From IMG/VR virus record IMGVR_UViG_3300045595_000033: a stretch of DNA of 31,021 nt, one strand, 5' to 3'. A program made the position numbers and the translations under genes. This document shows, in pieces, positions 6,109 through 31,021 of this stretch. Under the pieces are notes generated by a model, which was given only the letters and a program-made list of their open reading frames with translations, was not told the origin of the DNA and searched no databases. Source of the stretch: a virus. Position 1 is the stretch's first letter. Every line of letters begins with the position of its first letter.

Positions 6109-6372
6109 ATGCAACAAGTTAAAAGATTGGTTGTCAACAGTGCATTAGCAATGCTAATAGAAAGCCATGAAGAAGATAGACACGTAATAGCACTTAGAGG
6201 ATTAGGAATGCCACATTTTGGAAGTGGCAAGCAACTTTATGATTGGCTCATGTCGGATTATAAAGAACAAACTTCTTGGAGTAATGAGGAGCTTGGAACA
6301 ATGAAGTCCTTTTTTGACCGTTATAAAAAATTCAGAAGTGAAGATGGTTATGTTGAAGTATCCAGAAAATGA
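6109..6372 (+). CDS. Hypothetical protein
   Basis: ORF with a GAGGAA RBS. No motif recognised. Confidence 0.5.
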   Translation: MQQVKRLVVNSALAMLIESHEEDRHVIALRGLGMPHFGSGKQLYDWLMSDYKEQTSWSNEELGTMKSFFDRYKKFRSEDGYVEVSRK

Positions 6373-6382
6373 AAGGGGTAGC

Positions 6383-7120
6383 ATGATGGCCAGATATGAA
6401 GGCTCAAGCAGATCAAAGAAAACAAAGGTAGTTCCAAAGGGAATGCCAAAGCGGATGGATAATCCGAATGACGATTACCAGCGGAAGACCTCAACGAAGA
6501 TGGGGAAGCAAACCATGTGGTACTTCGAGAAGGAAGACTTTGAGAAGATGCAGCGTGCATGCCTGGTCCATATGCAGAAAGCAAAGAAAGGATCCAACAA
6601 CGAATACCGTTGGGAACGGAACTACCTTCTGTTGATGGTTGGAGTGAATATGGGCTGTAGGACAACCACAATCCTTGAGATTACGCCAAGATCGTTCGCG
6701 GGTGGTAGATTCTACGTCAAGGAGCACAAGACCGGTAAAACGCAAAATTATGAGCTGAAACAGGCCATCTATAAACTGCTTGATGATTTCACAACAAAAT
6801 GGGGGTTCACTAAAGATGAATTCATCTTCCGCACAAGGATGGATTCGCAGAACAAGCCTTTGACCCGTGAGCAAGCCTGGCATGTTGTTAAAGGGCTGGC
6901 AGAAGAAGTTGGCATCAAATATAACGTGGGAGCTTACAGCCTCCGCAAATCGTTTGCCAGGTGGCTCTATGACGATACTCACGATATCTTCAAAGTAATG
7001 AGAGTGATGCAGCATTCGGATCCGATTGTAACAGCACGGTATATCTGTCTGGAAGAAGATGAGGTAATGAAGATCCGCGAAAATATCCTGTTTGGGTTCG
7101 ATAATTTCAAGAACATTTAA
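6383..7120 (+). CDS. Small tyrosine recombinase (second phage-integrase-family gene)
   Basis: Catalytic-domain pattern: ...GCRTTTILEI..., YSLRKSFARWLY (Arg), MQHSDPIVTARYI (His...Tyr). ATG 6383 follows a GAAAGGGG RBS. About 245 aa, so it lacks a long N-terminal arm-binding domain. Confidence 0.7.
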   Translation: MMARYEGSSRSKKTKVVPKGMPKRMDNPNDDYQRKTSTKMGKQTMWYFEKEDFEKMQRACLVHMQKAKKGSNNEYRWERNYLLLMVGVNMGCRTTTILEITPRSFAGGRFYVKEHKTGKTQNYELKQAIYKLLDDFTTKWGFTKDEFIFRTRMDSQNKPLTREQAWHVVKGLAEEVGIKYNVGAYSLRKSFARWLYDDTHDIFKVMRVMQHSDPIVTARYICLEEDEVMKIRENILFGFDNFKNI

Positions 7121-19789: not shown

Positions 19790-20668
19790 ATGGCAGTTAA
19801 AGTTAAATGTCTCAATGAAGACAATGTTTCAATTGAATTTTCCGCCACTGAAACTGCTGAATACTTTCTTGAAGAATTGGATGGTGTAAGCAGTGTTTCA
19901 AATGCGGTTAGCACATCAGACAACACAATGACTGATGGAGCAACATACCAAGGTTCAGTAACAAAAGCACGTAATATCTTGATTAAGGGCTTCATTGATG
20001 ATGATTACATCAATCGAAGAAATTTCTTATATAACGTTGCTTTCAAACCAAAATCTTTCGGAACATTTACTTATTATGAAGATGATGAAGTAAAAAATAT
20101 TCCGTATGTTTTGGAAAGCATTGAAGTAGAAACAACGGGTATTGTTAGGCACTTTACAGTTTCGATTATTTGTCCTGATCCATTCTTTCTTGATCTGGAT
20201 GATACAGTTGTTACAATGTCCGGCTGGCAGTCTTTGTTTGAGTGGCCGCATACATTCTTAAATGAAAAAGAAGAGTTTGGCAGACGAATAAAATCTGTTT
20301 CAAAGGACATTGCAAATAATTCAGCAGCCGATTACATAGGCATTAAGATCAGCATTACAGTTGATGGAACCGTAGTTAATCCGGCGGTGTATCATCTGGA
20401 ACAAGCTGAATTCATTAAGCTTGGAAACACTTCTGATCCATTAACTATGGTTTCTGGTGATGAATTGGTAATAACAACTGGAGACAATAAAAAAGATATT
20501 TATCTGATTCACAATGGTGTGAAAACTAATGTGAATAAATATCTTGATCAGCAGTCTCAATTCATTCAGCTTGTTCACGGAACAAATACTCTCAAATATG
20601 ATGCGGATTCTGGCGTTGACTATATCAATTGCTCTATTACTTATCGGTTCCGCTATCTTGGAGTCTGA
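19790..20668 (+). CDS. Distal tail protein (Dit-like, siphovirus tail component)
   Basis: First gene after the tape measure, 292 aa. Confidence 0.6.
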   Translation: MAVKVKCLNEDNVSIEFSATETAEYFLEELDGVSSVSNAVSTSDNTMTDGATYQGSVTKARNILIKGFIDDDYINRRNFLYNVAFKPKSFGTFTYYEDDEVKNIPYVLESIEVETTGIVRHFTVSIICPDPFFLDLDDTVVTMSGWQSLFEWPHTFLNEKEEFGRRIKSVSKDIANNSAADYIGIKISITVDGTVVNPAVYHLEQAEFIKLGNTSDPLTMVSGDELVITTGDNKKDIYLIHNGVKTNVNKYLDQQSQFIQLVHGTNTLKYDADSGVDYINCSITYRFRYLGV

Positions 20669-20670
20669 TC

Positions 20671-21702
20671 ATGGAAATTAGAGTATATGATAGCAATCTA
20701 TCATTGCTAGGGTTTGTAGATAATTCTACTTCGCTGCTATGGAATAGAAGATTCTATAAGCCAGGTGCATTTGAACTGCATCTGCCGGCAACAGATTCAA
20801 ATTTGGAATTATTGGTTGAAGGAAACGTGGTTCATATATACGGGAAGAAAGAAGCCGGGGTTATAGAGCACAAGGATATTGAAAATGATAGCCTTGTTGT
20901 TTCCGGGAACTTTCTCAGCAATTACATGGATCGGAGACTGATCAAAGGAACATTCAATTTTAATGGATTAACCGAAGTTGCTATGCGGGATATCCTCACG
21001 AATGCAACAGCAATTCCAAATGTAGAGCTTGGAACATTGAATGGATTTACGCCAAGAGTACAGTTTCAGGCAACATATAAAAATCTACTTACATATGAAG
21101 AAAAGCTTTCTGTTTCAAGCAATATTGGCTTTCGTTTTAGGCCTGATTTTGTAAATAAAAAGATAATCTTTGAAACATATGAAGGAGTAGACAGAACATC
21201 CAGCCAAGCAGTCAATTCAAGAGTTGAATTTTCGGAGAACTATAAGAACATAGCAAATCCTAAATATTCATATGATGATTCTAACTTGAGAACAATTGCC
21301 TATGTTGGAGGAGAGGGAGAGGGATCCGCAAGAACGTTTGTTACGGTAGGCGGTGGATCCGGCCTCGGTCTTCGTGAGCTGTTTGTTGATGCAAAGGATA
21401 TTCAAAAGGGGGACTTGACGGATGATCAGTATAAGGCTCTTCTAGTCCAGCGTGGAAATGAAAAGCTTGCGGAGAATATCATCAATGAATCGTTTGATGC
21501 AGATGCTCTTCCGGATATTAACTTTGTTTATACTCAAGATTATGACCTGGGAGATATTGTTACCATCAAAGAAAAGAAATGGAACAAATCAATGGATAAG
21601 AGGATAACAGAGGTCCAAGAGGTATATGAACATACAAATATGTTCATCAGATTGACCTTCGGAGATCCTCTGCCTGAAACAATAGATTGGAGTGATAGTT
21701 AA
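20671..21702 (+). CDS. Tail-associated protein (Sipho_Gp37-like / Tal-like)
   Basis: ATG 20671 follows the Dit stop. MEIRVYDSNLSLLGFVDNSTSLLWNRRFYKPGAFELHLP resembles the ReqiPepy6 Gp37-like N-terminus. Confidence 0.55.
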   Translation: MEIRVYDSNLSLLGFVDNSTSLLWNRRFYKPGAFELHLPATDSNLELLVEGNVVHIYGKKEAGVIEHKDIENDSLVVSGNFLSNYMDRRLIKGTFNFNGLTEVAMRDILTNATAIPNVELGTLNGFTPRVQFQATYKNLLTYEEKLSVSSNIGFRFRPDFVNKKIIFETYEGVDRTSSQAVNSRVEFSENYKNIANPKYSYDDSNLRTIAYVGGEGEGSARTFVTVGGGSGLGLRELFVDAKDIQKGDLTDDQYKALLVQRGNEKLAENIINESFDADALPDINFVYTQDYDLGDIVTIKEKKWNKSMDKRITEVQEVYEHTNMFIRLTFGDPLPETIDWSDS

Positions 21703-22588: not shown

Positions 22589-23548
22589 ATGGCAGATATA
22601 CCTACAAAAAAATTGGATCAGCTTAATGCTGCAAGTGCTGTTGGATCGGATGATGATATTGTCGTAATCCGCTTCGCAGATGGCTCCGGTGTTAAGAAAT
22701 TAACGGTTGCTGAATTGCGTAAAGCAATGGCCGGAGATATTGCTACTCTTGGAACTACAGATAAAACATCTGCGGTGGCAGCCATCAATGAATTGAATAC
22801 AGCAGAGAAAGGCACAGCAGATCTTCTGGCTCCGCTTGTATTCGCAAATGCTGGTTCGCATAACGGCGTATTCAGAGGAAAAGATATCACTGCAAACGTA
22901 AATGATGGGAGTTTCTATACAAACATCAAGAATGGCACGTTCAAAGATATCTATATCGGTGATTACTTCACAAAAACAGTGAACGGAACGGCATTTGTAT
23001 TCCGCGTTGCCGGATTAGATGTTTATCTGCATAGAGGAAGCACAGAGTTCACATCACATCATGCAGTTATTGTTCCAGATGGAATCTTTGGAAAGTTCCA
23101 GATGAACTCTTCTAATACAACAGCCGGTGGATATGTTGCAACCGCAATGTATACAAACGTGCTGCCTACATGGGCTGGATATCTTGCAACTGCATTTGGA
23201 TCCAATCTCTTAACAAATAAAGAATTGTTATCAAATGCAATTAGCGGTGATCTTCCTAGTGGCTGGGATTGGTATGATTCAAAAGTTAATCTCATGACTT
23301 CTGAAGAGGTTATTGGCCATGGCGGATTTGGCATGTCTGGTCATAACTATGGCTATAACATTGGCATTGCCTATGGGCAGCTTCCGTTGTTCAGATTGGC
23401 TCCAGAGTTTATCTGTAACCGTGAGGTTTGGTGGCTCCGCAATATTACAACTGCTGCCGACTTCGCGGATGTGGGCAGCGGCGGCGATTTGGGCGGCGGC
23501 TACGCTTCCGGCACCTGGGGTCTTCGCCCTCGTTTCCTGCTTGGCTAA
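22589..23548 (+). CDS. Tail fibre / receptor-binding protein; DGR target gene carrying the VR at its C-terminus
   Basis: ATG 22589 follows a GAAGGAGAAAAC RBS. C-terminus ...EVWWLRNITTAADFADVGSGGDLGGGYASGTWGLRPRFLLG; its last 28 codons match the TR except at adenines. Confidence 0.85.
   Translation: MADIPTKKLDQLNAASAVGSDDDIVVIRFADGSGVKKLTVAELRKAMAGDIATLGTTDKTSAVAAINELNTAEKGTADLLAPLVFANAGSHNGVFRGKDITANVNDGSFYTNIKNGTFKDIYIGDYFTKTVNGTAFVFRVAGLDVYLHRGSTEFTSHHAVIVPDGIFGKFQMNSSNTTAGGYVATAMYTNVLPTWAGYLATAFGSNLLTNKELLSNAISGDLPSGWDWYDSKVNLMTSEEVIGHGGFGMSGHNYGYNIGIAYGQLPLFRLAPEFICNREVWWLRNITTAADFADVGSGGDLGGGYASGTWGLRPRFLLG
23452..23536 (+). repeat. DGR variable region (VR)
   Basis: 85 bp aligned to 24168-24252 at a fixed offset of 716. 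67/85 identical, and all 18 differences lie opposite TR adenines. Confidence 0.9.
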
Positions 23549-23555
23549 ATCTTTA

Positions 23556-23580
23556 ATCAGGCCCTCTTGTAGGGCCTGAT
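23556..23580 (+). promoter_or_regulatory. Perfect 10-bp stem / 5-nt loop hairpin 8 nt after the target stop codon (DGR homing-enhancing hairpin/cruciform candidate; may also terminate)
   Basis: atcaggccct-cttgt-agggcctgat read directly. Confidence 0.65.
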
Positions 23581-23598
23581 ATTACTTGAAAGGAATCT

Positions 23599-24147
23599 AT
23601 GTCTGTACCTAAATCCAAAAGATCTTTATCCGAACTAGAGTTCTACCACAATGCATATGTATTAAGAAAATCCATTACAGAATTGCTCCTCAAAGATTTT
23701 GGGATCAGAGATAAGCAGAGAAATATCAGAGCTTATGTTTCTATGAAACATTTTGATGCCAATGATAGAGAAGAATTCTTAAGGCTATGTGATAAATACA
23801 AGATCAACGATAACCTCATTGAATCGTATCCTACATGGCTCCTGGATCACTTTAGAACAAGCTTGATGGATTCCATGAACAGCTTGATCAATAACATCAC
23901 ATATGCAAACAGCGTATATCCCACAAGAGAATCTGAATATGATCAGCGGAGATTGTATCAGAACAGAGCAATTGCAAACTGCTATCAGATGCTACAGGAA
24001 ATGCAGTACGTGATCAGTGTTCTCCCAGTAGATGCCGAAAGATATATGAATTACGTTGGAATGATAGAACGTGAAATAGTTCTTCTAAAAGGATGGCGTA
24101 AATCAGACAACAGGATCCTGAAAGCTATCAAATCAAAAAATGAATAG
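23599..24147 (+). CDS. avd: Avd-like DGR accessory protein (helical bundle), unusually long at 182 aa
   Basis: Position between VR and TR. Helical, basic, with LEFYHNAYVLRKSITELL and ...NNITYANSVYP...RRLYQNRAIANCYQMLQEMQYV resembling four-helix-bundle Avd proteins. Confidence 0.6.
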   Translation: MSVPKSKRSLSELEFYHNAYVLRKSITELLLKDFGIRDKQRNIRAYVSMKHFDANDREEFLRLCDKYKINDNLIESYPTWLLDHFRTSLMDSMNSLINNITYANSVYPTRESEYDQRRLYQNRAIANCYQMLQEMQYVISVLPVDAERYMNYVGMIEREIVLLKGWRKSDNRILKAIKSKNE

Positions 24148-24380
24148 GGCATTGTTTACAAGAAAAGTGCTGCCAACTTCGCGAATGTGAACAACAACGG
24201 CAATTTGAACAACAACAACGCTTCCAACACCTGGGGTCTTCGCCCTCGATTCTATTGGCCATACTATGTGTAGGCTATAAGCCGATATGGCACAAGCAGA
24301 AGGAAACAATGTCCTTCCTTAATTGGTAAATATTATGGCAGATGCCAGCGGATACGTCCACAAGCTGAAACTGCCTACAT
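24148..24380 (+). ncRNA. DGR RNA (TR plus ~130-nt structured spacer preceding the RT gene)
   Basis: No ORF or RBS. Nested stems are visible, e.g. gccata...tatggc (24258-24291) enclosing ggct-ataa-gcc, and gaagga-aacaatg-tccttc (24300-24318). Confidence 0.6.
24168..24252 (+). repeat. DGR template region (TR)
   Basis: Non-coding copy of the VR. In the VR frame it reads AANFANVNNNGNLNNNNASNTWGLRPRF with 11 AAY codons. It holds 24 adenines, 18 of them substituted in the VR. Confidence 0.9.
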
Positions 24381-24386
24381 TTGTTT

Positions 24387-25625
24387 ATGAAAACTATTGA
24401 AGATGTATGCAATGCAAACAAACTTATTGAAGCTTTCCACAATGCCCAGAAAGGCTGCATATGGAAAGAATCGGTCCAGCGTTATGAATGTAACCTATTA
24501 TTGAATACTTACGATTTGCAGAAATCAGTACGGGAAGGGCATTATTCCCAGAGAGAATTCTATGAGTTCAAGATCAATGAAAGAGGGAAATGCAGAGATA
24601 TCAAATCCATGTATATATCCGATAGGGTATTGCAGAGATCTCTTTGTGACAACATCATTACGCCAGCGATTGAGCCATATCTAATCTATGACAATGGAGC
24701 AAGCTTGAAAGATAAAGGCGTTGATTTTACCAGAGCCAGATTAGAGCATCATCTTCATAGTTATTTTAGAGAGAACGGATCCAATGATGGATTCGTTTTA
24801 TTGATTGATTTCAGCAAATATTTTGACAACATACAGCACGAAGAGCTGTATGAAATGCTATGCGATAGAGTTCCGGATAAAGAAGTCCGCAAACTGCTAA
24901 AGAATATTCTCGAAGGATTCAAGATAGATGTTTCCTATTTGTCTGATGAAGACTATCAGAACTGCATGAATGTTGTTTTCAACAGTCTGGAATATTCAAA
25001 GCTTGACCGGAGCATGATGATCGGCGAAAAGATGATGCCAAAATCTGTTGGCATTGGAAGCCAGATCAGCCAAAGTTCCGGAATCTATTATCCCGGCAGA
25101 ATGGATAACTATTGCAAGATAGTTAAAGGCATCAAGTATTACGGAAGATATATGGATGATACATACATTATTTCTTCTGATAAAGAGTATTTGCTGAAGC
25201 TATTGAACGATATTACGGATATCTGTAATGATCTGGGCATATTCATTAACAAAAAGAAAACTCAGATTGTGAAGCTATCTCATGGGTTCAAATTTCTGAA
25301 GATTCATTATATTTTGACGGATTCCGGTAAGGTTCTTAAAAAGTTTGATTCAGGAACATTCACCAGGGAAAAACGCAAGATCAAGAAATTCAGAAAGAAA
25401 TATGAATCTGGCGAGATGCTGTATGAAGATATTGTTCATTCATATCTCGGATGGCGTGGATCTGTTAAGAAGTTCAAAGCAAACACAAGAACTTTGCACG
25501 AAGTAGATCGTATGTTCCTGGAACTTTTTCCAGAGTACATAGAAGAGAACAAGAAAGAGAGGAAGATCTATTATGAAGATTCTGGACGAAAACGGAAAAG
25601 TATTAAAAACGACCCCGGATTTTAG
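24387..25625 (+). CDS. rt: DGR-type reverse transcriptase
   Basis: Motifs ERGKCRDI, SDRVLQRSL, NGASLKDKG, LLIDFSKYFDNI, GIGSQISQSSGIYY (DGR signature I/LGxxxSQ) and YGRYMDDTYII (YxDD). ATG at 24387; the ORF-track start at 24381 is TTG. Confidence 0.9.
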   Translation: MKTIEDVCNANKLIEAFHNAQKGCIWKESVQRYECNLLLNTYDLQKSVREGHYSQREFYEFKINERGKCRDIKSMYISDRVLQRSLCDNIITPAIEPYLIYDNGASLKDKGVDFTRARLEHHLHSYFRENGSNDGFVLLIDFSKYFDNIQHEELYEMLCDRVPDKEVRKLLKNILEGFKIDVSYLSDEDYQNCMNVVFNSLEYSKLDRSMMIGEKMMPKSVGIGSQISQSSGIYYPGRMDNYCKIVKGIKYYGRYMDDTYIISSDKEYLLKLLNDITDICNDLGIFINKKKTQIVKLSHGFKFLKIHYILTDSGKVLKKFDSGTFTREKRKIKKFRKKYESGEMLYEDIVHSYLGWRGSVKKFKANTRTLHEVDRMFLELFPEYIEENKKERKIYYEDSGRKRKSIKNDPGF

Positions 25626-25797
25626 CACTGGAAGATATCTTCAGGACGAAAACGGAAACCTTGTTTTTACAAAGTGGACGGATGAAGAACTGAAAGAAAT
25701 CAAAGAAAAAGAAAATGCAACATTAGGAGCCCGCGTAACTCAGGTTGAAAGTGCTGCCATGGAGCTTGCTCAGATGATCGGAGGAAATGCAGCATGA
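25573..25797 (+). CDS. Hypothetical tail-fibre-module protein
   Basis: 74-aa ORF overlapping the RT 3' end by 53 nt and ATGA-coupled to the next small ORF. Confidence 0.5.
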   Translation: MKILDENGKVLKTTPDFSTGRYLQDENGNLVFTKWTDEELKEIKEKENATLGARVTQVESAAMELAQMIGGNAA

Positions 25798-26195: not shown

Positions 26196-27151
26196 CATTT
26201 TCAAAGCTTGTTAGTTCAACACATTTTACAGATAAGTATAACGGCAGAAATGGTAATCCTATCTGTAAGATCACGCCTCATCACATGGCCGGCGTTATGT
26301 CCGGTGCAGCATGTGGAGCATATTTGCAGAGCACGCCTCGCCAGGCTAGTGCCAATTATTGTATTGGCGTAGATGGTGATATTGATTGCGAAGTCGAAGA
26401 AGAGAACAGAGCATGGACCTCTAGCTCATGGGATAACGATAAGAACGCAATTACCATTGAATGTTCTGATTGTGATGGAAATTGGAATATCTCTGATGCT
26501 ACATTTAACGCTCTGGTAGACCTCTGCGTTGATATTTGCCAGAGATATGGATTCTCATTGAACTATGATGGAACGCCTAATGGATCACTTACCGAACATA
26601 GAATGTTCGCTAACACTGATTGCCCAGGCGAACCATTCCATAACAGATTCCCTGAATTGGCAGAGAAAGTAAATGCAAGGTTAGGCGTAAGTCCTACTCC
26701 GGCACAGCCTTCAGCAGATGCTTCCATTGAAGAACTGGCACAGGAAGTTATTGCCGGCGTATATGGCAATGGTGATGAAAGACGTGCTGCACTTGGCAGC
26801 AACTATGATGCAGTACAGGCAAGAGTAAATGAGATCCTTGCGGGTGGCTCATCCGCTGCTCCATCCGTTGATATTGATGCATTGGCCAAAGCAGTGATTG
26901 CTGGCCAGTACGGAAATGGTGAAGACCGCAAGAATGCTCTTGGAGCTAATTATGATGCGGTCCAGGCAAGAGTAAATGAGATTCTTGCCGGTGGAAATTC
27001 AGACACAAAACCAGATATCGAAGCTCTGGCAAAGTCTGTTATTCATGGTGATTATGGAAACGGTGAAGACCGTAAGAACGCTCTTGGAGATAACTATGAT
27101 GCAGTACAGGCCCGGGTGAATGAAATCTTATCCGGGAACCATGGAGAATGA
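26192..27151 (+). CDS. Endolysin: N-acetylmuramoyl-L-alanine amidase (Amidase_2/PGRP-type) with three C-terminal CW_7 repeats
   Basis: ITPHHMAG, ANYCIGVDG, RAWTSS, NAITIECS and LTEHRMFANTDCPG (Zn ligands H...H...C), then three copies of VI.G.YGNGE(D/E)R...LG.NYDAVQARVNEIL. Confidence 0.85.
   Translation: MTFSKLVSSTHFTDKYNGRNGNPICKITPHHMAGVMSGAACGAYLQSTPRQASANYCIGVDGDIDCEVEEENRAWTSSSWDNDKNAITIECSDCDGNWNISDATFNALVDLCVDICQRYGFSLNYDGTPNGSLTEHRMFANTDCPGEPFHNRFPELAEKVNARLGVSPTPAQPSADASIEELAQEVIAGVYGNGDERRAALGSNYDAVQARVNEILAGGSSAAPSVDIDALAKAVIAGQYGNGEDRKNALGANYDAVQARVNEILAGGNSDTKPDIEALAKSVIHGDYGNGEDRKNALGDNYDAVQARVNEILSGNHGE
26726..27130 (+). repeat. Three tandem CW_7 (Cpl-7-type) cell-wall-binding repeats, period 144-147 bp
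   Basis: Repeat cores at 26726-26839, 26873-26986 and 27017-27130, computed from residue positions 179-216, 228-265 and 276-313. Confidence 0.8.
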
Positions 27152-28160: not shown

Positions 28161-29198
28161 TCAAAATTTTACGTTTTTAAGGACATTCAAAGTCGCATTC
28201 TGCTTGTTATCAAATATGTGGCTATATGTCCGCATTGTCTGCGCCGGGCTGCTATGGCCAATCCGCTTTGAGATTTCCGGAACTGGAACTCCAGCATTCC
28301 ATAAAAGTGAAACGTGGCTATGCCTTAAATCATGTATTCTTGTATCTTTAGATAATCCGGCAGATATCAGATCGGCTTTGAAGTGGTCTTGAAGCGTTGT
28401 AAGACATGCCGGAACATAATCACCAAACATATATTTTCCTGGCATTTTTGAATGTCTTTCAAAAATTTGTGCTGTTGTGTCATCAAGAGGAACATATCTT
28501 ATTGAACCTCTTGTTTTTGGTTCTTTTAGAGATTTTTCTCCTCTCCGCATAGCCTTTGTTATGTGTATTTGCTTTGTGCTCGGGTTATAGTCTTCTTTTA
28601 GAAGAGCACGAAGCTCTCCTTTTCTTGCTCCAGTCATATACAAAGCGGTGAAGAAATCTTTGCATAGCGGATCATCTTCTGCATTCATCATATTTTTGAA
28701 ATTTTCTGTTGTTATTATCATGATTTCTTTTTCATCCTTTAACGTTTTTGGATAATGCTTCAAAATTTTAGATGCATCATATGTATCATATGTTTCATAC
28801 GAATATCTAAATATCATCTTGATTAGATCAATAACATCATTTTTTGTATCGGTGCAAATAGGGAAATCATTTAATGTGGTTCTCCATGATTGAAGCATTT
28901 CTTTAGATATTAAGTGCATTGGCTTTTGGTAGATAGATTCTGCATATTTTTTTAGGCGGCCTCTCCGAAGCTCTGTGGTTTCGCTGTTGGCTATATTATG
29001 AGCAGACATAGCTTCAAACGCTTGTATCATAGTCATGTGTTTAGATAAAGTTTCTCCTTTATGATCAAGCTCATATTGCTTTGCCTCATCCGCTGTTTTG
29101 AATCCCCATTTGCATTTGTGCTTCAAATCTCCATTTGCATCTTTAACGTAGAACTGGCAATCCCATAGCTTTGTTTTTTTGTTTTTTTTAACAGACAT
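28161..29198 (-). CDS. int: Tyrosine integrase
   Basis: 345 aa with an N-terminal SAM-like/arm region. ...GARKGELRAL..., HDLRHSHVSLLWNAGVP and GHSSPAQTMRTYSHI supply the R...HxxR...Y catalytic set. Confidence 0.9.
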   Translation of the reverse strand: MSVKKNKKTKLWDCQFYVKDANGDLKHKCKWGFKTADEAKQYELDHKGETLSKHMTMIQAFEAMSAHNIANSETTELRRGRLKKYAESIYQKPMHLISKEMLQSWRTTLNDFPICTDTKNDVIDLIKMIFRYSYETYDTYDASKILKHYPKTLKDEKEIMIITTENFKNMMNAEDDPLCKDFFTALYMTGARKGELRALLKEDYNPSTKQIHITKAMRRGEKSLKEPKTRGSIRYVPLDDTTAQIFERHSKMPGKYMFGDYVPACLTTLQDHFKADLISAGLSKDTRIHDLRHSHVSLLWNAGVPVPEISKRIGHSSPAQTMRTYSHIFDNKQNATLNVLKNVKF

Positions 29199-30894: not shown

Positions 30895-31021
30895 GATGGC
30901 TTTTATTAGCCGTCTCTATATTAACACAAAAAGGAGACTATGAAAATGGCATCAACAACAATTACAAGGAAACAACAGGTTCAAGTTCAACTTGCGATAC
31001 TTGACAGAATCAAGTATTTAT
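30895..31021. repeat. Terminal direct repeat, copy 2 (identical to 1-127)
   Basis: Same 127-bp string as 1-127. It truncates a second copy of the ORF that starts at 46. Confidence 0.9.

Follow-up and report, generated by a model that had tools for sequence, protein, structure and literature searches.

Components and cis elements of a diversity-generating retroelement in the tail module of a temperate siphovirus

The prototype diversity-generating retroelement (DGR) is that of Bordetella phage BPP-1, arranged as mtd-avd-TR-brt, in which the VR lies at the 3' end of a receptor-binding gene of C-type-lectin fold and the template (TR) is rich in AAY codons. DGRs with DUF6273-type targets are already known from phages of gut Bacillota, such as phages nd4 and nd12 and the Faecalibacterium prophages Lelie, Roos and Pioen (PMC10743442, PMC11792537). 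The cultured phages closest to the one described here are Acutalibacter phage Fontainebleau (ON453893), in whose record the DGR target and Avd-like genes carry no annotation beyond 'hypothetical', and Roseburia phage Shimadzu (LR596903).

The window analysed here is the full 31,021-nucleotide stretch of IMG/VR virus record IMGVR_UViG_3300045595_000033, from a temperate siphovirus of ~30.9 kb. Region 22589-25625, in the tail module, is very probably a complete DGR in the common order target-avd-TR-RT (Table 1). An earlier note on this DNA had proposed this reading, with three ORFs, an Avd-like helical protein and a reverse transcriptase (RT) bearing a DGR-specific IGSQxSQ motif and a YMDD box. 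Each of these components is present and every independent test proved DGR-like, including two of the checks set out in that note, for a C-type-lectin-like target fold and for VR variation concentrated at TR-adenine positions in relatives with a conserved TR.

Beyond gene order, the locus shares with BPP-1 the position of the VR and the AAY-rich TR, an RT with the [I/V/L]GxxxSQ and YMDD motifs and equivalents of R74 and I181, a basic Avd-type protein, a GC-rich IMH-like end, and a GC-rich hairpin shortly after the VR (PMC3240598). It also has a colinear spacer RNA composed of a 5' stem-loop, a primer strand, a long-range duplex and a long interrupted 3' stem-loop (bioRxiv 10.1101/2023.10.23.563531). 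In contrast, its RT is only distantly similar to bRT (phmmer E 1e-16, two aligned segments), its 182-aa Avd carries an insertion of ~45 residues and has no detectable sequence match to bAvd, its target is DUF6273-like rather than Mtd-like (Mtd is absent from the fold matches), and the phage is a siphovirus of a Gram-positive host. With the DUF6273-target DGRs it has in common the C-type-lectin-like DUF6273 domain lineage with a C-terminal VR, RTs 28-32% identical to its own, a temperate lifestyle and, probably, gut Bacillota hosts. It differs from them in a target under the Pfam DUF6273 threshold, in a single target gene with no Ig-domain 'tentaclin', and in an Avd-like protein from another, longer subfamily. 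Fontainebleau is syntenic across minor tail, structural protein, target, 184-aa Avd-like protein, TR, RT and lysis genes, with matching TR end and spacer motifs (RT 40%, Avd-like protein 32% identity), and Shimadzu has the series tail fibre-Avd-TR-RT, an annotated Avd and an adenine-only TR/VR pair. Protein identity to these two phages is only 32-40%, there is no nucleotide similarity to the window, and Shimadzu differs further in its short 136-aa Avd and myovirus-type baseplate.

Table 1. Features of the DGR region, in window coordinates.
Feature	Position	Strand	Basis or detail
Target gene, receptor-binding/tail-fibre protein, 319 aa	22589-23548	+	ORF, genome context, AF2 model, fold matches
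VR	23452-23536	+	substituted sites span 23459-23511
IMH-like 3' end of VR	23514-23548	+	GC-rich, adenine-free CCTGGGGTCTTCGCCCTCG (23514-23532) common to TR
GC-rich hairpin/cruciform after VR	23556-23580	+	10-bp stem ATCAGGCCCT/AGGGCCTGAT, loop CTTGT
Accessory gene, divergent Avd homologue, 182 aa, pI 9.1	23599-24147	+	PHROG match, predicted fold, locus association
5' strand of long-range RNA duplex bracketing TR	24147-24157	+	GGGCATTGTTT; pairs with 24304-24314
TR, non-coding	24168-24252	+	24 adenines, 22 in 11 AAY codons of the VR frame
TR-specific A24249 and TTCT (24250-24253)	24249-24253	+	family covariation, BPP-1 analogy
Spacer (Sp) RNA between TR and RT	24253-24386	+	alignment of 40 family spacers, folds
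Spacer 5' stem-loop	24258-24291	+	
Primer-like strand AGAA, before conserved GG	24298-24301	+	
3' strand of long-range duplex	24304-24314	+	
Conserved spacer motif GGTAAATA	24325-24332	+	
Long interrupted spacer stem-loop	24337-24375	+	UACG cap at 24353-24356
DGR reverse transcriptase, 412 aa	24387-25625	+	Pfam RVT_1; IGSQISQ, YMDD

The VR and TR, which form the top repeat in a repeat search of the region, align without gaps over 85 positions at an offset of 716. All 18 mismatches fall at TR adenines (16 A-to-G, 2 A-to-T), 6 of the 24 adenines are unchanged and 61/61 non-adenine positions are the same in the VR; the probability that all 18 mismatches would fall on the 24 adenine positions by chance is 1.1e-13. 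Read in the VR frame, the TR gives AANFANVNNNGNLNNNNASNTWGLRPRF and the VR gives AADFADVGSGGDLGGGYASGTWGLRPRF, with 11/11 AAY codons recoded, and one more mutable adenine lies outside these codons, in an ACC. Realignment and the repeat search thus confirmed the earlier claims of a gapless alignment differing only at adenines and of complete AAY recoding, while two further claims required correction. The VR had been described as the last 85 coding bases of the target, whereas the gene continues past it for 9 coding bases (LLG) and a stop codon, at 23537-23548. All 18 differences had been ascribed to mutagenesis, which stands for 17 of them; at 23533/24249 (VR T, TR A) the VR base is T in all four close-relative alleles, and almost every more distant member of the family has C or T there, so this pair is read from the alignments as a fixed TR/VR boundary difference (IMH vs IMH*) that mutagenesis did not produce. 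The mutable adenines then number 23, of which 17 are changed. Information passes from TR to VR up to a 3' limit between 23527 and 23533. Across the family, substitution affects 57% of the 1516 TR adenines (G 355 or 41%, T 292 or 34%, C 219 or 25%), a level near the 52% misincorporation found for bRT-Avd (PMC7826257). A-to-G accounts for 16 of the 17 substitutions in the present VR, far from this family spectrum.

Three phages that are 95-96% identical carry different VR alleles, which differ pairwise at 10-17 of the 24 adenine sites vs 1-5 of the 61 other sites, so that the VR is hypervariable beside a conserved TR. Compared with relative L028, the window differs at 6/863 sites in the part of the target preceding the VR and at 14/85 sites within the VR, and avd has no differences (0/549). 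The TR is the same in relative L003 and shows two non-adenine differences in L028 (positions 70 and 76); because both recur in L028's own VR, they reveal TR-to-VR transfer with co-conversion of non-adenine markers. Ordinary duplication followed by base-specific mutation or selection, for example A-to-G editing or deamination acting in the absence of reverse transcription, would suit the strong A-to-G bias of this one allele (16/18 changes), but is extremely improbable given that A-to-C and A-to-T changes also occur in sister alleles and all three bases are well represented in the family spectrum, that none of the relatives has a change at a TR adenine while its VR varies, that non-adenine TR markers are copied to the VR, and that the arrangement with RT and Avd recurs in dozens of loci.

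The DGR thus appears, from these comparisons, to have been used recently in this lineage. A different view is that the cassette is intact but inactive or very rarely active, the VR being a frozen relic whose differences reflect old events and recombination. The window's VR allele indeed recurs in 100% identical contigs from four sequencing runs, P0209 and P0002 have one VR allele in common despite three scaffold differences, L001-type prophages hold a VR allele without any cassette, so that frozen VRs do exist, and single non-adenine differences between cognate TR and VR in L003 and L028 suggest time since the last homing. We regard this view as rather unlikely, since the ORFs are all intact with catalytic and mutagenesis-promoting residues kept, conservation of the TR, the hairpin and the VR-to-avd interval is perfect in relatives differing by 1-7% elsewhere, phages with target scaffolds as little as 0.7% apart carry three alleles, and the L028 TR markers moved to the VR after divergence. 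Because of the alleles shared among the four runs and between P0209 and P0002, VR alleles can be stable, and diversification of a recently used DGR may be rare or episodic.

The locus contains the cis elements described for BPP-1, and across about 50 related loci they covary, which backs both the hairpin and the RNA helices. Following CCTGGGGTCTTCGCCCTCG, the VR has its own T23533 and diverges from the TR starting at 23537; the pattern of a GC-rich element with a TR-specific A behind it holds across the family. The hairpin begins 19 nt 3' of the VR and has a DNA fold z of -4.2 (0/200 shuffles folding as well); a terminator scan does not score it. It is the same in L003 and L028 and missing from the cassette-less L001 type, and perfect stems of 6 bp or more form at 38/49 family loci vs 1/49 control segments, with stem sequences varying between loci. 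The hairpin is likely a target-recognition element. In the BPP-1 hairpin, which has a 4-nt GRNA loop consensus, both loop size and sequence matter (PMC3240598). The loop here has 5 nt (CTTGT vs GAAA/GRNA in BPP-1), off that consensus, which counts against a BPP-1-like reading.

In the RNA, the 8 nt after the conserved spacer GG pair with a site upstream of the TR in 36/37 family loci (23 perfect Watson-Crick pairings, at least 10 distinct octamers; control rate 26/1216), and this duplex, 24147-24157/24304-24314, occupies the place that the avd:Sp 'cPRT Stop' duplex has in BPP-1. By analogy, TTCT (24250-24253) would pair with Sp 24298-24301 as the template side of a template:primer duplex, with A24249 as the first templated nucleotide. 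The BPP-1 counterparts are TR118-121:Sp53-56 and G117 (bioRxiv 10.1101/2023.10.23.563531), so the putative initiating nucleotide is adenine here instead of G. The TTCT/AGAA-type duplex occurs in seven covarying versions across the family, and the nucleotide 5' of it is A in 45/51 loci, against C or T in the VR. The support for this short duplex (3-6 bp) consists of those seven variants and analogy only. In the alignment of 40 family spacers, 94% of cells are paired vs 26-50% in slid controls, and the covariation score is 0.54 vs 0.06-0.13 (0/500 shuffles reach it); independent single-sequence folds recover the 3' stem-loop in most loci, and a search of the spacer RNA against Rfam gave no match.

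The accessory ORF encodes a divergent Avd homologue, as judged from its PHROG match, its predicted fold and the adenine-only TR/VR pairs at related loci. It matches phrog_3206 'Avd protein of DGR' (E 1e-6) and is 34% identical to the annotated Avd of Shimadzu, with the LKGWRKxD motif in common; no Pfam or PDB sequence match of its own was found. The AF2 model (pLDDT 90) is an Avd-like four-helix bundle (helices 14-31, 79-105, 111-141 and 146-169), with the insertion at about residues 32-78. Its top Foldseek matches, 2rld and 2gsc, belong to the S23-ribosomal/23S-IVS family, which Avd resembles (bioRxiv 10.1101/2023.10.23.563531); bAvd is absent from the best 50 fold matches. Relatives are encoded at 233 IMG/VR loci, and 68 of the 80 fetched for TR/VR analysis have an adenine-only TR/VR pair in the same positions, flanking the Avd-like gene.

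The RT bears IGSQISQ at aa 223-229 and YMDD at aa 255-258, and its R70 and I223 are the aligned counterparts of bRT R74 and I181, which promote adenine mutagenesis (PMC7826257). An RT from another retroelement or defence system (group II intron, retron, DRT/UG or Abi), next to an unrelated duplication, could account for the generic RVT_1 domain, the weak matches to group II, Drt and retron models and a best PADLOC match to only a generic RT. All those model matches lie far under the NCBIfam cut-offs (group II, 74 bits vs 300), the motif is not QGxxxSP (PMC7826257), Rfam gave no intron RNA or msr/msd match, and the best PDB sequence match is BPP-1 bRT (8ub7), 12 orders of magnitude ahead of group II intron and retron RTs (about 5e-4). 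An adenine-only TR/VR pair also always flanks this RT lineage, so that a non-DGR identity is effectively refuted and retains only a negligible probability. Among the matches listed in the phage collection, relatives of this DGR-type RT include Shimadzu, nd4, nd12 and Faecalibacterium phage Lelie, DGR-bearing by description or annotation, and Bordetella phages as well.

The target directly follows genes for Dit (19790-20668), Sipho_Gp37 (20671-21702) and a virion structural protein. In its AF2 model (pLDDT 87), a helical attachment part at the N-terminus is followed by a C-type-lectin-like globular domain (residues ~85-319), with the VR at the C-terminus. In the PDB, the fold is closest to the T. 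ramosa IgA peptidase, with its C-type-lectin-like NTD (PMC12237041), and to the Legionella Lcl C-terminal domain; the best matches in BFVD are gut-phage receptor-binding proteins and DUF6273 proteins. The protein has no Pfam or PDB sequence match of its own, while 50/121 homologues match Pfam DUF6273, and homologue N-termini carry Mtd_N, BppU_N or PTR. These matches and the model point to a C-type-lectin-like receptor-binding protein of the DUF6273 lineage.

In the mechanism proposed, an RNA running from the end of avd through the TR and spacer would fold so that the long-range duplex brackets the TR and the short duplex brings the 3' end of the TR to the active site of the RT. In complex with a pentameric Avd-like protein, the RT would then copy the TR into cDNA by self-priming from the spacer RNA, putatively at A24301 with initiation at A24249, misincorporating at adenines; pentamer formation and the roles of individual stem-loops are proposed on the BPP-1 model. 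The GC-rich IMH-like end and the hairpin would guide the cDNA in replacing the VR from 23452 to about 23530, and up to 11 AAY codons and one ACC codon would be recoded on the C-terminal face of the receptor-binding domain.

Taken together, this DGR is a well-formed instance of a well-known system and no new kind of system. The phage is temperate and of gut type, its Gram-positive host is probably a gut or oral member of the Bacillota, and the DGR rewrites the tip of its receptor-binding tail protein. By analogy, the biological outcome would be receptor switching by the phage, within an accessible target repertoire whose size is likewise inferred.

The stretch 22589-25625 is a complete diversity-generating retroelement (DGR) with the layout target-avd-TR-RT, the commonest one among DGRs (PMC5758913), and every part that the earlier note had listed in this order was found. 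At its core lies the repeat pair formed by the variable repeat (VR) and the template repeat (TR), which align without gaps over 85 nt at an offset of 716 nt and came out of a repeat search as the top direct repeat of the region. All 18 mismatches fall on TR adenines (16 A->G, 2 A->T), six of the 24 TR adenines are unchanged and the non-adenine positions are identical (61/61); the chance of all 18 mismatches hitting the 24 adenine positions is P = 1.1e-13. Translated in the target frame, the TR reads AANFANVNNNGNLNNNNASNTWGLRPRF and the VR AADFADVGSGGDLGGGYASGTWGLRPRF, with 11 of 11 AAY codons recoded, so that both the adenine-only differences and the complete recoding of these codons described in the earlier note are borne out. 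Its placement of the repeats also holds as far as the coordinates are concerned, but the VR, which codes for residues 288-316 of the 319-residue target, does not form the last 85 coding bases, as nine more coding bases and the stop (LLG*, 23537-23548) come after it.

Reading the mismatches as products of mutagenesis, as had been proposed, is correct in general and fails for a single pair of positions. At 24249/23533 the TR carries A and the VR carries T; because this T recurs in all four VR alleles of close relatives, and because the matching TR position is A in 45 of 51 family loci (those with a related Avd-like protein) where the VR has C or T, the difference is a fixed one at the TR/VR boundary rather than a mutagenesis product. 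At the mutable adenines (23459-23511), 16 of the 17 substitutions in the window are A->G, with a Gly/Asp/Ser-rich tip (DFADVGSGGDLGGGYASG) as the outcome; this excess contrasts with the mixed spectrum seen in the sister alleles and in 61 family pairs. Over these 61 distinct TR/VR pairs, substitutions affect 57% of the 1516 TR adenines (G 355, T 292, C 219; 41%, 34% and 25%, respectively), close to the 52% misincorporation measured for bRT-Avd, the BPP-1 enzyme with its accessory protein (PMC7826257).

Coordinates and composition of the mapped features, in window positions
Feature	Position	Strand	Size or make-up	Context or basis
Target gene	22589-23548		319 aa	3' of Dit, Sipho_Gp37 tail protein and virion structural protein
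VR	23452-23536		85 nt	
GC-rich hairpin	23556-23580		10-bp stem, loop CTTGT	starts 19 nt past VR
Avd-like ORF	23599-24147		182 aa, pI 9.1	between target and TR
Long-range duplex	24147-24157 with 24304-24314		11 bp, brackets TR	complementarity search
TR	24168-24252		85 nt	
Spacer	24253-24386			
Primer-like duplex	24298-24301 with 24250-24253		AGAA with TTCT	window version
3' stem-loop	24337-24375		loop UACG 24353-24356	folding and covariation
RT	24387-25625		412 aa	Pfam RVT_1
Integrase	28161-29198	minus		with S24-type repressor
Structural genes			terminase, portal, capsid, tape measure, then Dit-Gp37 tail-tip module	
Endolysin			Amidase_2 + CW_7	

The reverse transcriptase (RT) comes closest to DGR enzymes in a nearest-neighbour comparison, in which its best solved relative is the BPP-1 DGR RT (8ub7, E 1e-16) and retron-type and group II RTs follow at 4e-4 to 8e-4. 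Scores against group II, retron and Drt models are far under their cut-offs, and the best PADLOC match is a generic RT only. The DGR motif and YMDD box that had been claimed for this protein are present as IGSQISQ (aa 223-229) and YMDD (aa 255-258), the former aligning on IGSLTSQ of the BPP-1 enzyme (bRT) and corresponding to the signature [I/V/L]GxxxSQ that DGR RTs carry in place of QGxxxSP (PMC7826257). R70 aligns on bRT R74, which together with I181 has been shown to promote adenine mutagenesis (PMC7826257). Among the RT matches listed in the phage collection are Roseburia phage Shimadzu, nd4, nd12 and Faecalibacterium phage Lelie, for which DGRs have been described or annotated (PMC10743442, PMC11792537), and Bordetella phages are also among the matching records.

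Sequence searches gave nothing meaningful for the Avd-like protein and the target, and both therefore called for a comparison of folds. The Avd-like protein has no sequence match in Pfam, NCBIfam or PDB, either as a single sequence or as an 86-sequence profile. It does match phrog_3206, 'Avd protein of DGR', with residues 84-178 (E 1e-6), and shares 34% identity over residues 89-170 with the annotated Avd of phage Shimadzu, a LKGWRKxD motif included. Its AF2 model (pLDDT 90) is a four-helix bundle, for which Foldseek returned 2rld and 2gsc, both of the 'S23 ribosomal protein' family, as top PDB folds (probability 0.9-1.0, target-normalised TM 0.57-0.67; rmsd to 2gsc 1.6-2.3 A); the BPP-1 protein bAvd is absent among the top 50 Foldseek matches, and Avd has been described as similar to S23 ribosomal proteins (bioRxiv 10.1101/2023.10.23.563531). 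Reported Avd proteins are small (~128 aa) and basic (pI 9.5 +/- 0.7) (PMC5758913), a range which the window protein fits by its pI but not by its length, the additional residues being accounted for by an insertion that spans roughly residues 32-78. In IMG/VR, 233 loci code for relatives, and in 68 of the 80 loci fetched the Avd-like gene is flanked by an adenine-only TR/VR pair, the VR lying shortly before it and the TR shortly after. The product is thus an Avd homologue missed by standard profiles, and the Avd-like helical protein postulated at this site is supported by the PHROG match, the four-helix fold and the TR/VR-flanked relatives.

The target itself has no sequence match of note in Pfam, NCBIfam or PDB, and Pfam DUF6273 does not match it even at E <= 10. 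Of its homologues, 50 of 121 do match DUF6273 (E <= 0.01), in their C-terminal 40-70 residues, and N-termini among the homologues carry Mtd_N, BppU_N or phage-tail-repeat domains. For the AF2 model of the target (pLDDT 87), the best PDB folds are the T. ramosa IgA peptidase (E 1e-5, 282 aligned columns), whose N-terminal domain is C-type-lectin-like and resembles Lcl (PMC12237041), and the C-terminal domain of Legionella Lcl. The best predicted viral structures in BFVD are gut-phage proteins labelled 'Receptor Binding Protein' and 'DUF6273 domain-containing' (E 1e-27 to 1e-5), DUF6273 proteins specifically matching at E 3e-9 to 3e-5. In gut Bacillota phages this C-type-lectin-like domain is a known DGR target and has the VR at its C-terminal end (PMC10743442, PMC11792537). 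An Mtd-like target is unsupported, Mtd not being among the PDB fold matches although some homologues possess Mtd_N. The protein is best described as a divergent relative of the DUF6273 lineage, and the VR sits at the 3' end of an ORF with a predicted C-type-lectin-like fold.

The DNA next to the VR agrees well with an element of this kind. The VR ends in an adenine-free, GC-rich 19-mer common to the TR, after which come the A24249/T23533 difference and, past 24252/23536, VR-specific and diverging sequence; the two ends are an IMH/IMH*-type arrangement. Downstream of the VR lies a GC-rich hairpin with a DNA fold z of -4.2, which none of 200 shuffles equalled in folding, and which is identical in the related cassette-bearing phages L003 and L028 and missing in cassette-less relatives. 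Perfect stems of at least 6 bp occur in 38 of 49 distinct post-VR segments of the family, as against 1 of 49 control segments, with stem sequences that vary and with loops mostly of 5 nt (CTTGT, TTTAT, TATAT) and in a few cases of 4 nt (GATA, GTAA, GCAA). As a plain intrinsic terminator the hairpin fares poorly, being unscored in a terminator scan and having no T-run, besides its absence from cassette-less relatives. BPP-1 retrohoming needs a hairpin/cruciform with a 7-10 bp GC-rich stem, located 4-34 bp past the VR and closed by a 4-nt GRNA loop (PMC3240598); the window hairpin agrees with it in stem and distance but has the 5-nt loop CTTGT instead. A 4-nt GRNA loop marks a subset of DGRs and does not define the class as a whole.

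On the RNA side, a MAFFT alignment of 40 non-redundant loci, covering TR 3' ends and spacers, yielded a consensus structure in which 94% of cells are paired, compared with 26-50% after a shift of the partners by 1-3 columns; covariation scores 0.54 versus 0.06-0.13, and 0 of 500 column shuffles match it. The structural claim rests on this covariation, since the single-sequence fold of the spacer is not significantly stabler than shuffles (z = -1.35). The long, twice-interrupted 3' stem-loop, recovered by per-sequence folds in most loci and mostly capped by UACG or UAAG, has double-sided changes in 9 of 9 pairs. In 36 of 37 loci the 8 nt past the conserved spacer GG pair with a site just upstream of the TR; 23 of these pairings are perfectly Watson-Crick and comprise at least 10 different octamers, whereas mismatched combinations of loci pair in 26 of 1216 cases. 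Directly 5' of the GG, 3-6 nt pair with the TR flank that follows the TR-specific adenine, and this primer-like duplex exists in seven covarying versions (GAAA/TTTC, TTAAAA/TTTTAA, GCA/TGC, GAA/TTC, AGAA/TTCT, GGAA/TTCC and AAGCA/TGCTT). The first spacer stem, misaligned by 1-2 columns in some MAFFT rows, is backed by inspection and per-sequence folds only.

Two other pairings were weighed and set aside. Single-sequence and alignment folds propose a local hairpin GAAGG/CCTTC (24299-24303 with 24313-24317), whose pairs never covary; it was dropped because its 'loop' covaries instead with sequence upstream of the TR. RNAalifold offers a helix of 24242-24244 with 24325-24327, which was not adopted as the primer duplex because 24243 has been co-converted into the VR in L028. 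This same pairing, between GCC of the GC-rich TR end and GGU of GGUAAAUA, could form in 95% of the family sequences, with one-sided changes only, its TR side lying within the segment copied into the VR.

The spacer thus presents, in order, a 5' stem-loop, the primer-like strand, the strand of the TR-bracketing duplex, the conserved single-stranded GGUAAAUA and the long interrupted 3' stem-loop. The BPP-1 DGR RNA is built of an Avd-binding stem-loop, the template:primer duplex (priming at Sp A56), the avd:Sp cPRT-Stop duplex, the thumb ring and a bRT-binding stem-loop, with which the window elements are colinear (bioRxiv 10.1101/2023.10.23.563531). By position and by analogy, the window elements would take the same roles as their BPP-1 counterparts, with cDNA priming predicted at A24301 and initiation at A24249. 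Rfam holds no family that matches the TR/spacer region, and a tRNA search of the window found none.

Two relatives that are 95-96% identical to the window, L003 (same contig as L002, L023 and L029) and L028, document past activity of the element. Each has its own VR allele; the TR of L003 equals that of the window, and that of L028 differs at two positions. Against its own TR, the L003 VR has 12 adenine mismatches and one T>C, and the L028 VR 12 adenine mismatches and one G>T. Altogether four VR alleles exist among close relatives with a conserved TR, and pairwise comparison of them shows 10-17 differences at the 24 adenine sites and 1-5 at the 61 others. Between the window and L028, differences number 6/863 in the part of the target gene before the VR, 14/85 within the VR itself, 0/62 in the VR-to-avd interval and 0/549 in avd; among relatives overall, VR divergence amounts to 16-20% versus 0-7% in flanking genes. 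Alignments of the target proteins likewise display a conserved scaffold and a hypervariable C-terminal tip. The comparison with related genomes that the earlier note had called for therefore turned out as a DGR predicts, with variation concentrated at TR-adenine sites and the TR conserved.

The two non-adenine changes of the L028 TR, at its positions 70 and 76 (window 24237 and 24243), also occur in the L028 VR and read as the signature of TR-to-VR copying after the lineages split; from these mirrored markers, the 3' limit of transfer lies between 23527 and 23533. Judging by the sequences, the DGR has evidently been used recently. P0209 and P0002, targets of L003-type phage, have an identical VR allele and differ at three scaffold residues; VR alleles can therefore last some evolutionary time, and this speaks against continuous diversification. 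The VR allele of the window also recurs in contigs from four sequencing runs that match it at 100% identity, each assembly representing one consensus VR allele per sample. These contigs (L111-L114, from four independent runs) all end inside or just after the TR (24217, 24287). The TR/VR repeat is evidently a breaking point for assemblers, so that cassettes of this kind would often be split in short-read assemblies.

The fourth VR allele comes from a different prophage. At L001:4706-5470 (also in L004, L005 and L011), this prophage has the target C-terminal domain equivalent to window 22841-23549 at 96% nucleotide identity; in two cases the prophage lies on a bacterial contig (326 and 638 kb). 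In the L001 prophage, avd, TR and RT are absent within 5 kb, as is the post-VR hairpin, and the adenine-free 19-mer, required in any cognate TR, has a single copy on the whole contig. The homology with the window stops exactly at the stop codon. This VR is an orphan, apparently relocated through an exchange of modules, and after it comes a second target paralogue (38% identity) at L001:5849-6673.

The DGR is carried by what looks like a whole temperate phage genome. The window begins and ends with the same 127 nt (1-127, 30895-31021) and is for this reason a circular assembly of 30,894 bp; its gene content (tail, endolysin, integrase, repressor) indicates a siphovirus that is temperate and infects a Gram-positive host. 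For the target and the Avd-like protein, the nearest homologues with a name come from a Solobacterium sp. MAG (71% and 77% identity, respectively) and a Lachnospiraceae MAG. A GTDB scan for the host with the adenine-free 19-mer gave only unrelated matches in GC-rich genomes, with no similarity to the window; 7 of 12 metagenome matches of the scan were likewise unrelated. Two tyrosine-recombinase genes are present: 28161-29198 is a typical integrase with an Arm DNA-binding domain that adjoins the S24 repressor, and 6314-7120 is a shorter Phage_integrase-family ORF amid early genes. A 74-aa ORF (25573-25797), without any family match, shares 53 nt with the RT 3' end and has within it a direct repeat of 19 nt (25580, 25640). 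Its conservation in L003 and L028 is 97-99%, and in Shimadzu the RT is likewise followed by an ORF of about this size. In the endolysin gene, 26788-26994, the ~60-nt direct repeats at 147-nt spacing correspond to the three CW_7 cell-wall-binding repeats and are ordinary.

A nucleotide search of the phage collection with the cassette gave no match. Among cultured phages, Acutalibacter phage Fontainebleau and Roseburia phage Shimadzu come closest, both with adenine-only TR/VR pairs. In Fontainebleau the synteny is the same, the RT shares 40% identity and the Avd-like protein, of 184 aa, is labelled hypothetical; the Shimadzu RT is 38% identical and its annotated Avd has 136 aa. The Fontainebleau cassette (L110, ON453893: 33554-36376) consists of target, the 184-aa Avd-like protein, TR and RT, of which only the RT is not annotated as hypothetical. 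Fontainebleau is a prophage of Acutalibacter muris, an OMM12 strain, and is both cultured and inducible; no DGR is mentioned in the paper that describes it.

Knowledge of how DGRs work is unchanged by the window element, whose target domain lineage is already tied to gut-phage DGRs and whose cis elements match the BPP-1 paradigm. It adds one clean, complete DGR with mapped TR, VR, hairpin and RNA cis elements, from an uncultured temperate phage of a Gram-positive host. Of modest interest are the long Avd variant, the RNA scaffold with a candidate priming site on a template adenine, the 5-nt hairpin loops, the A->G excess of the window VR and the orphan VR without a TR. The main practical value is comparative, in that, together with about 50 related loci, the element provides Bacillota phage DGRs with a covariation-backed TR-bracketing duplex and a likely priming site. 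Recognition of the long unannotated ORF between target and TR as an Avd homologue would improve annotation, for example of Fontainebleau, which could also serve as an experimental model for the DGR lineage of the window.

One tentative reading, a little short of probable, places the window in a distinct and widespread DGR lineage of Bacillota siphoviruses, the long Avd-like protein being encoded at no fewer than 233 IMG/VR loci. This lineage would be characterized by the Avd insertion of ~45 residues and a covarying RNA scaffold absent from Rfam, with cDNA primed at the adenosine before the spacer GG and started on the TR-specific adenine, at which TR and VR show their first fixed difference. 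If this is true, the priming site itself would set the IMH/IMH* boundary, and the RNA model could predict where cDNA starts and stops in hundreds of DGRs of uncultured gut phages.
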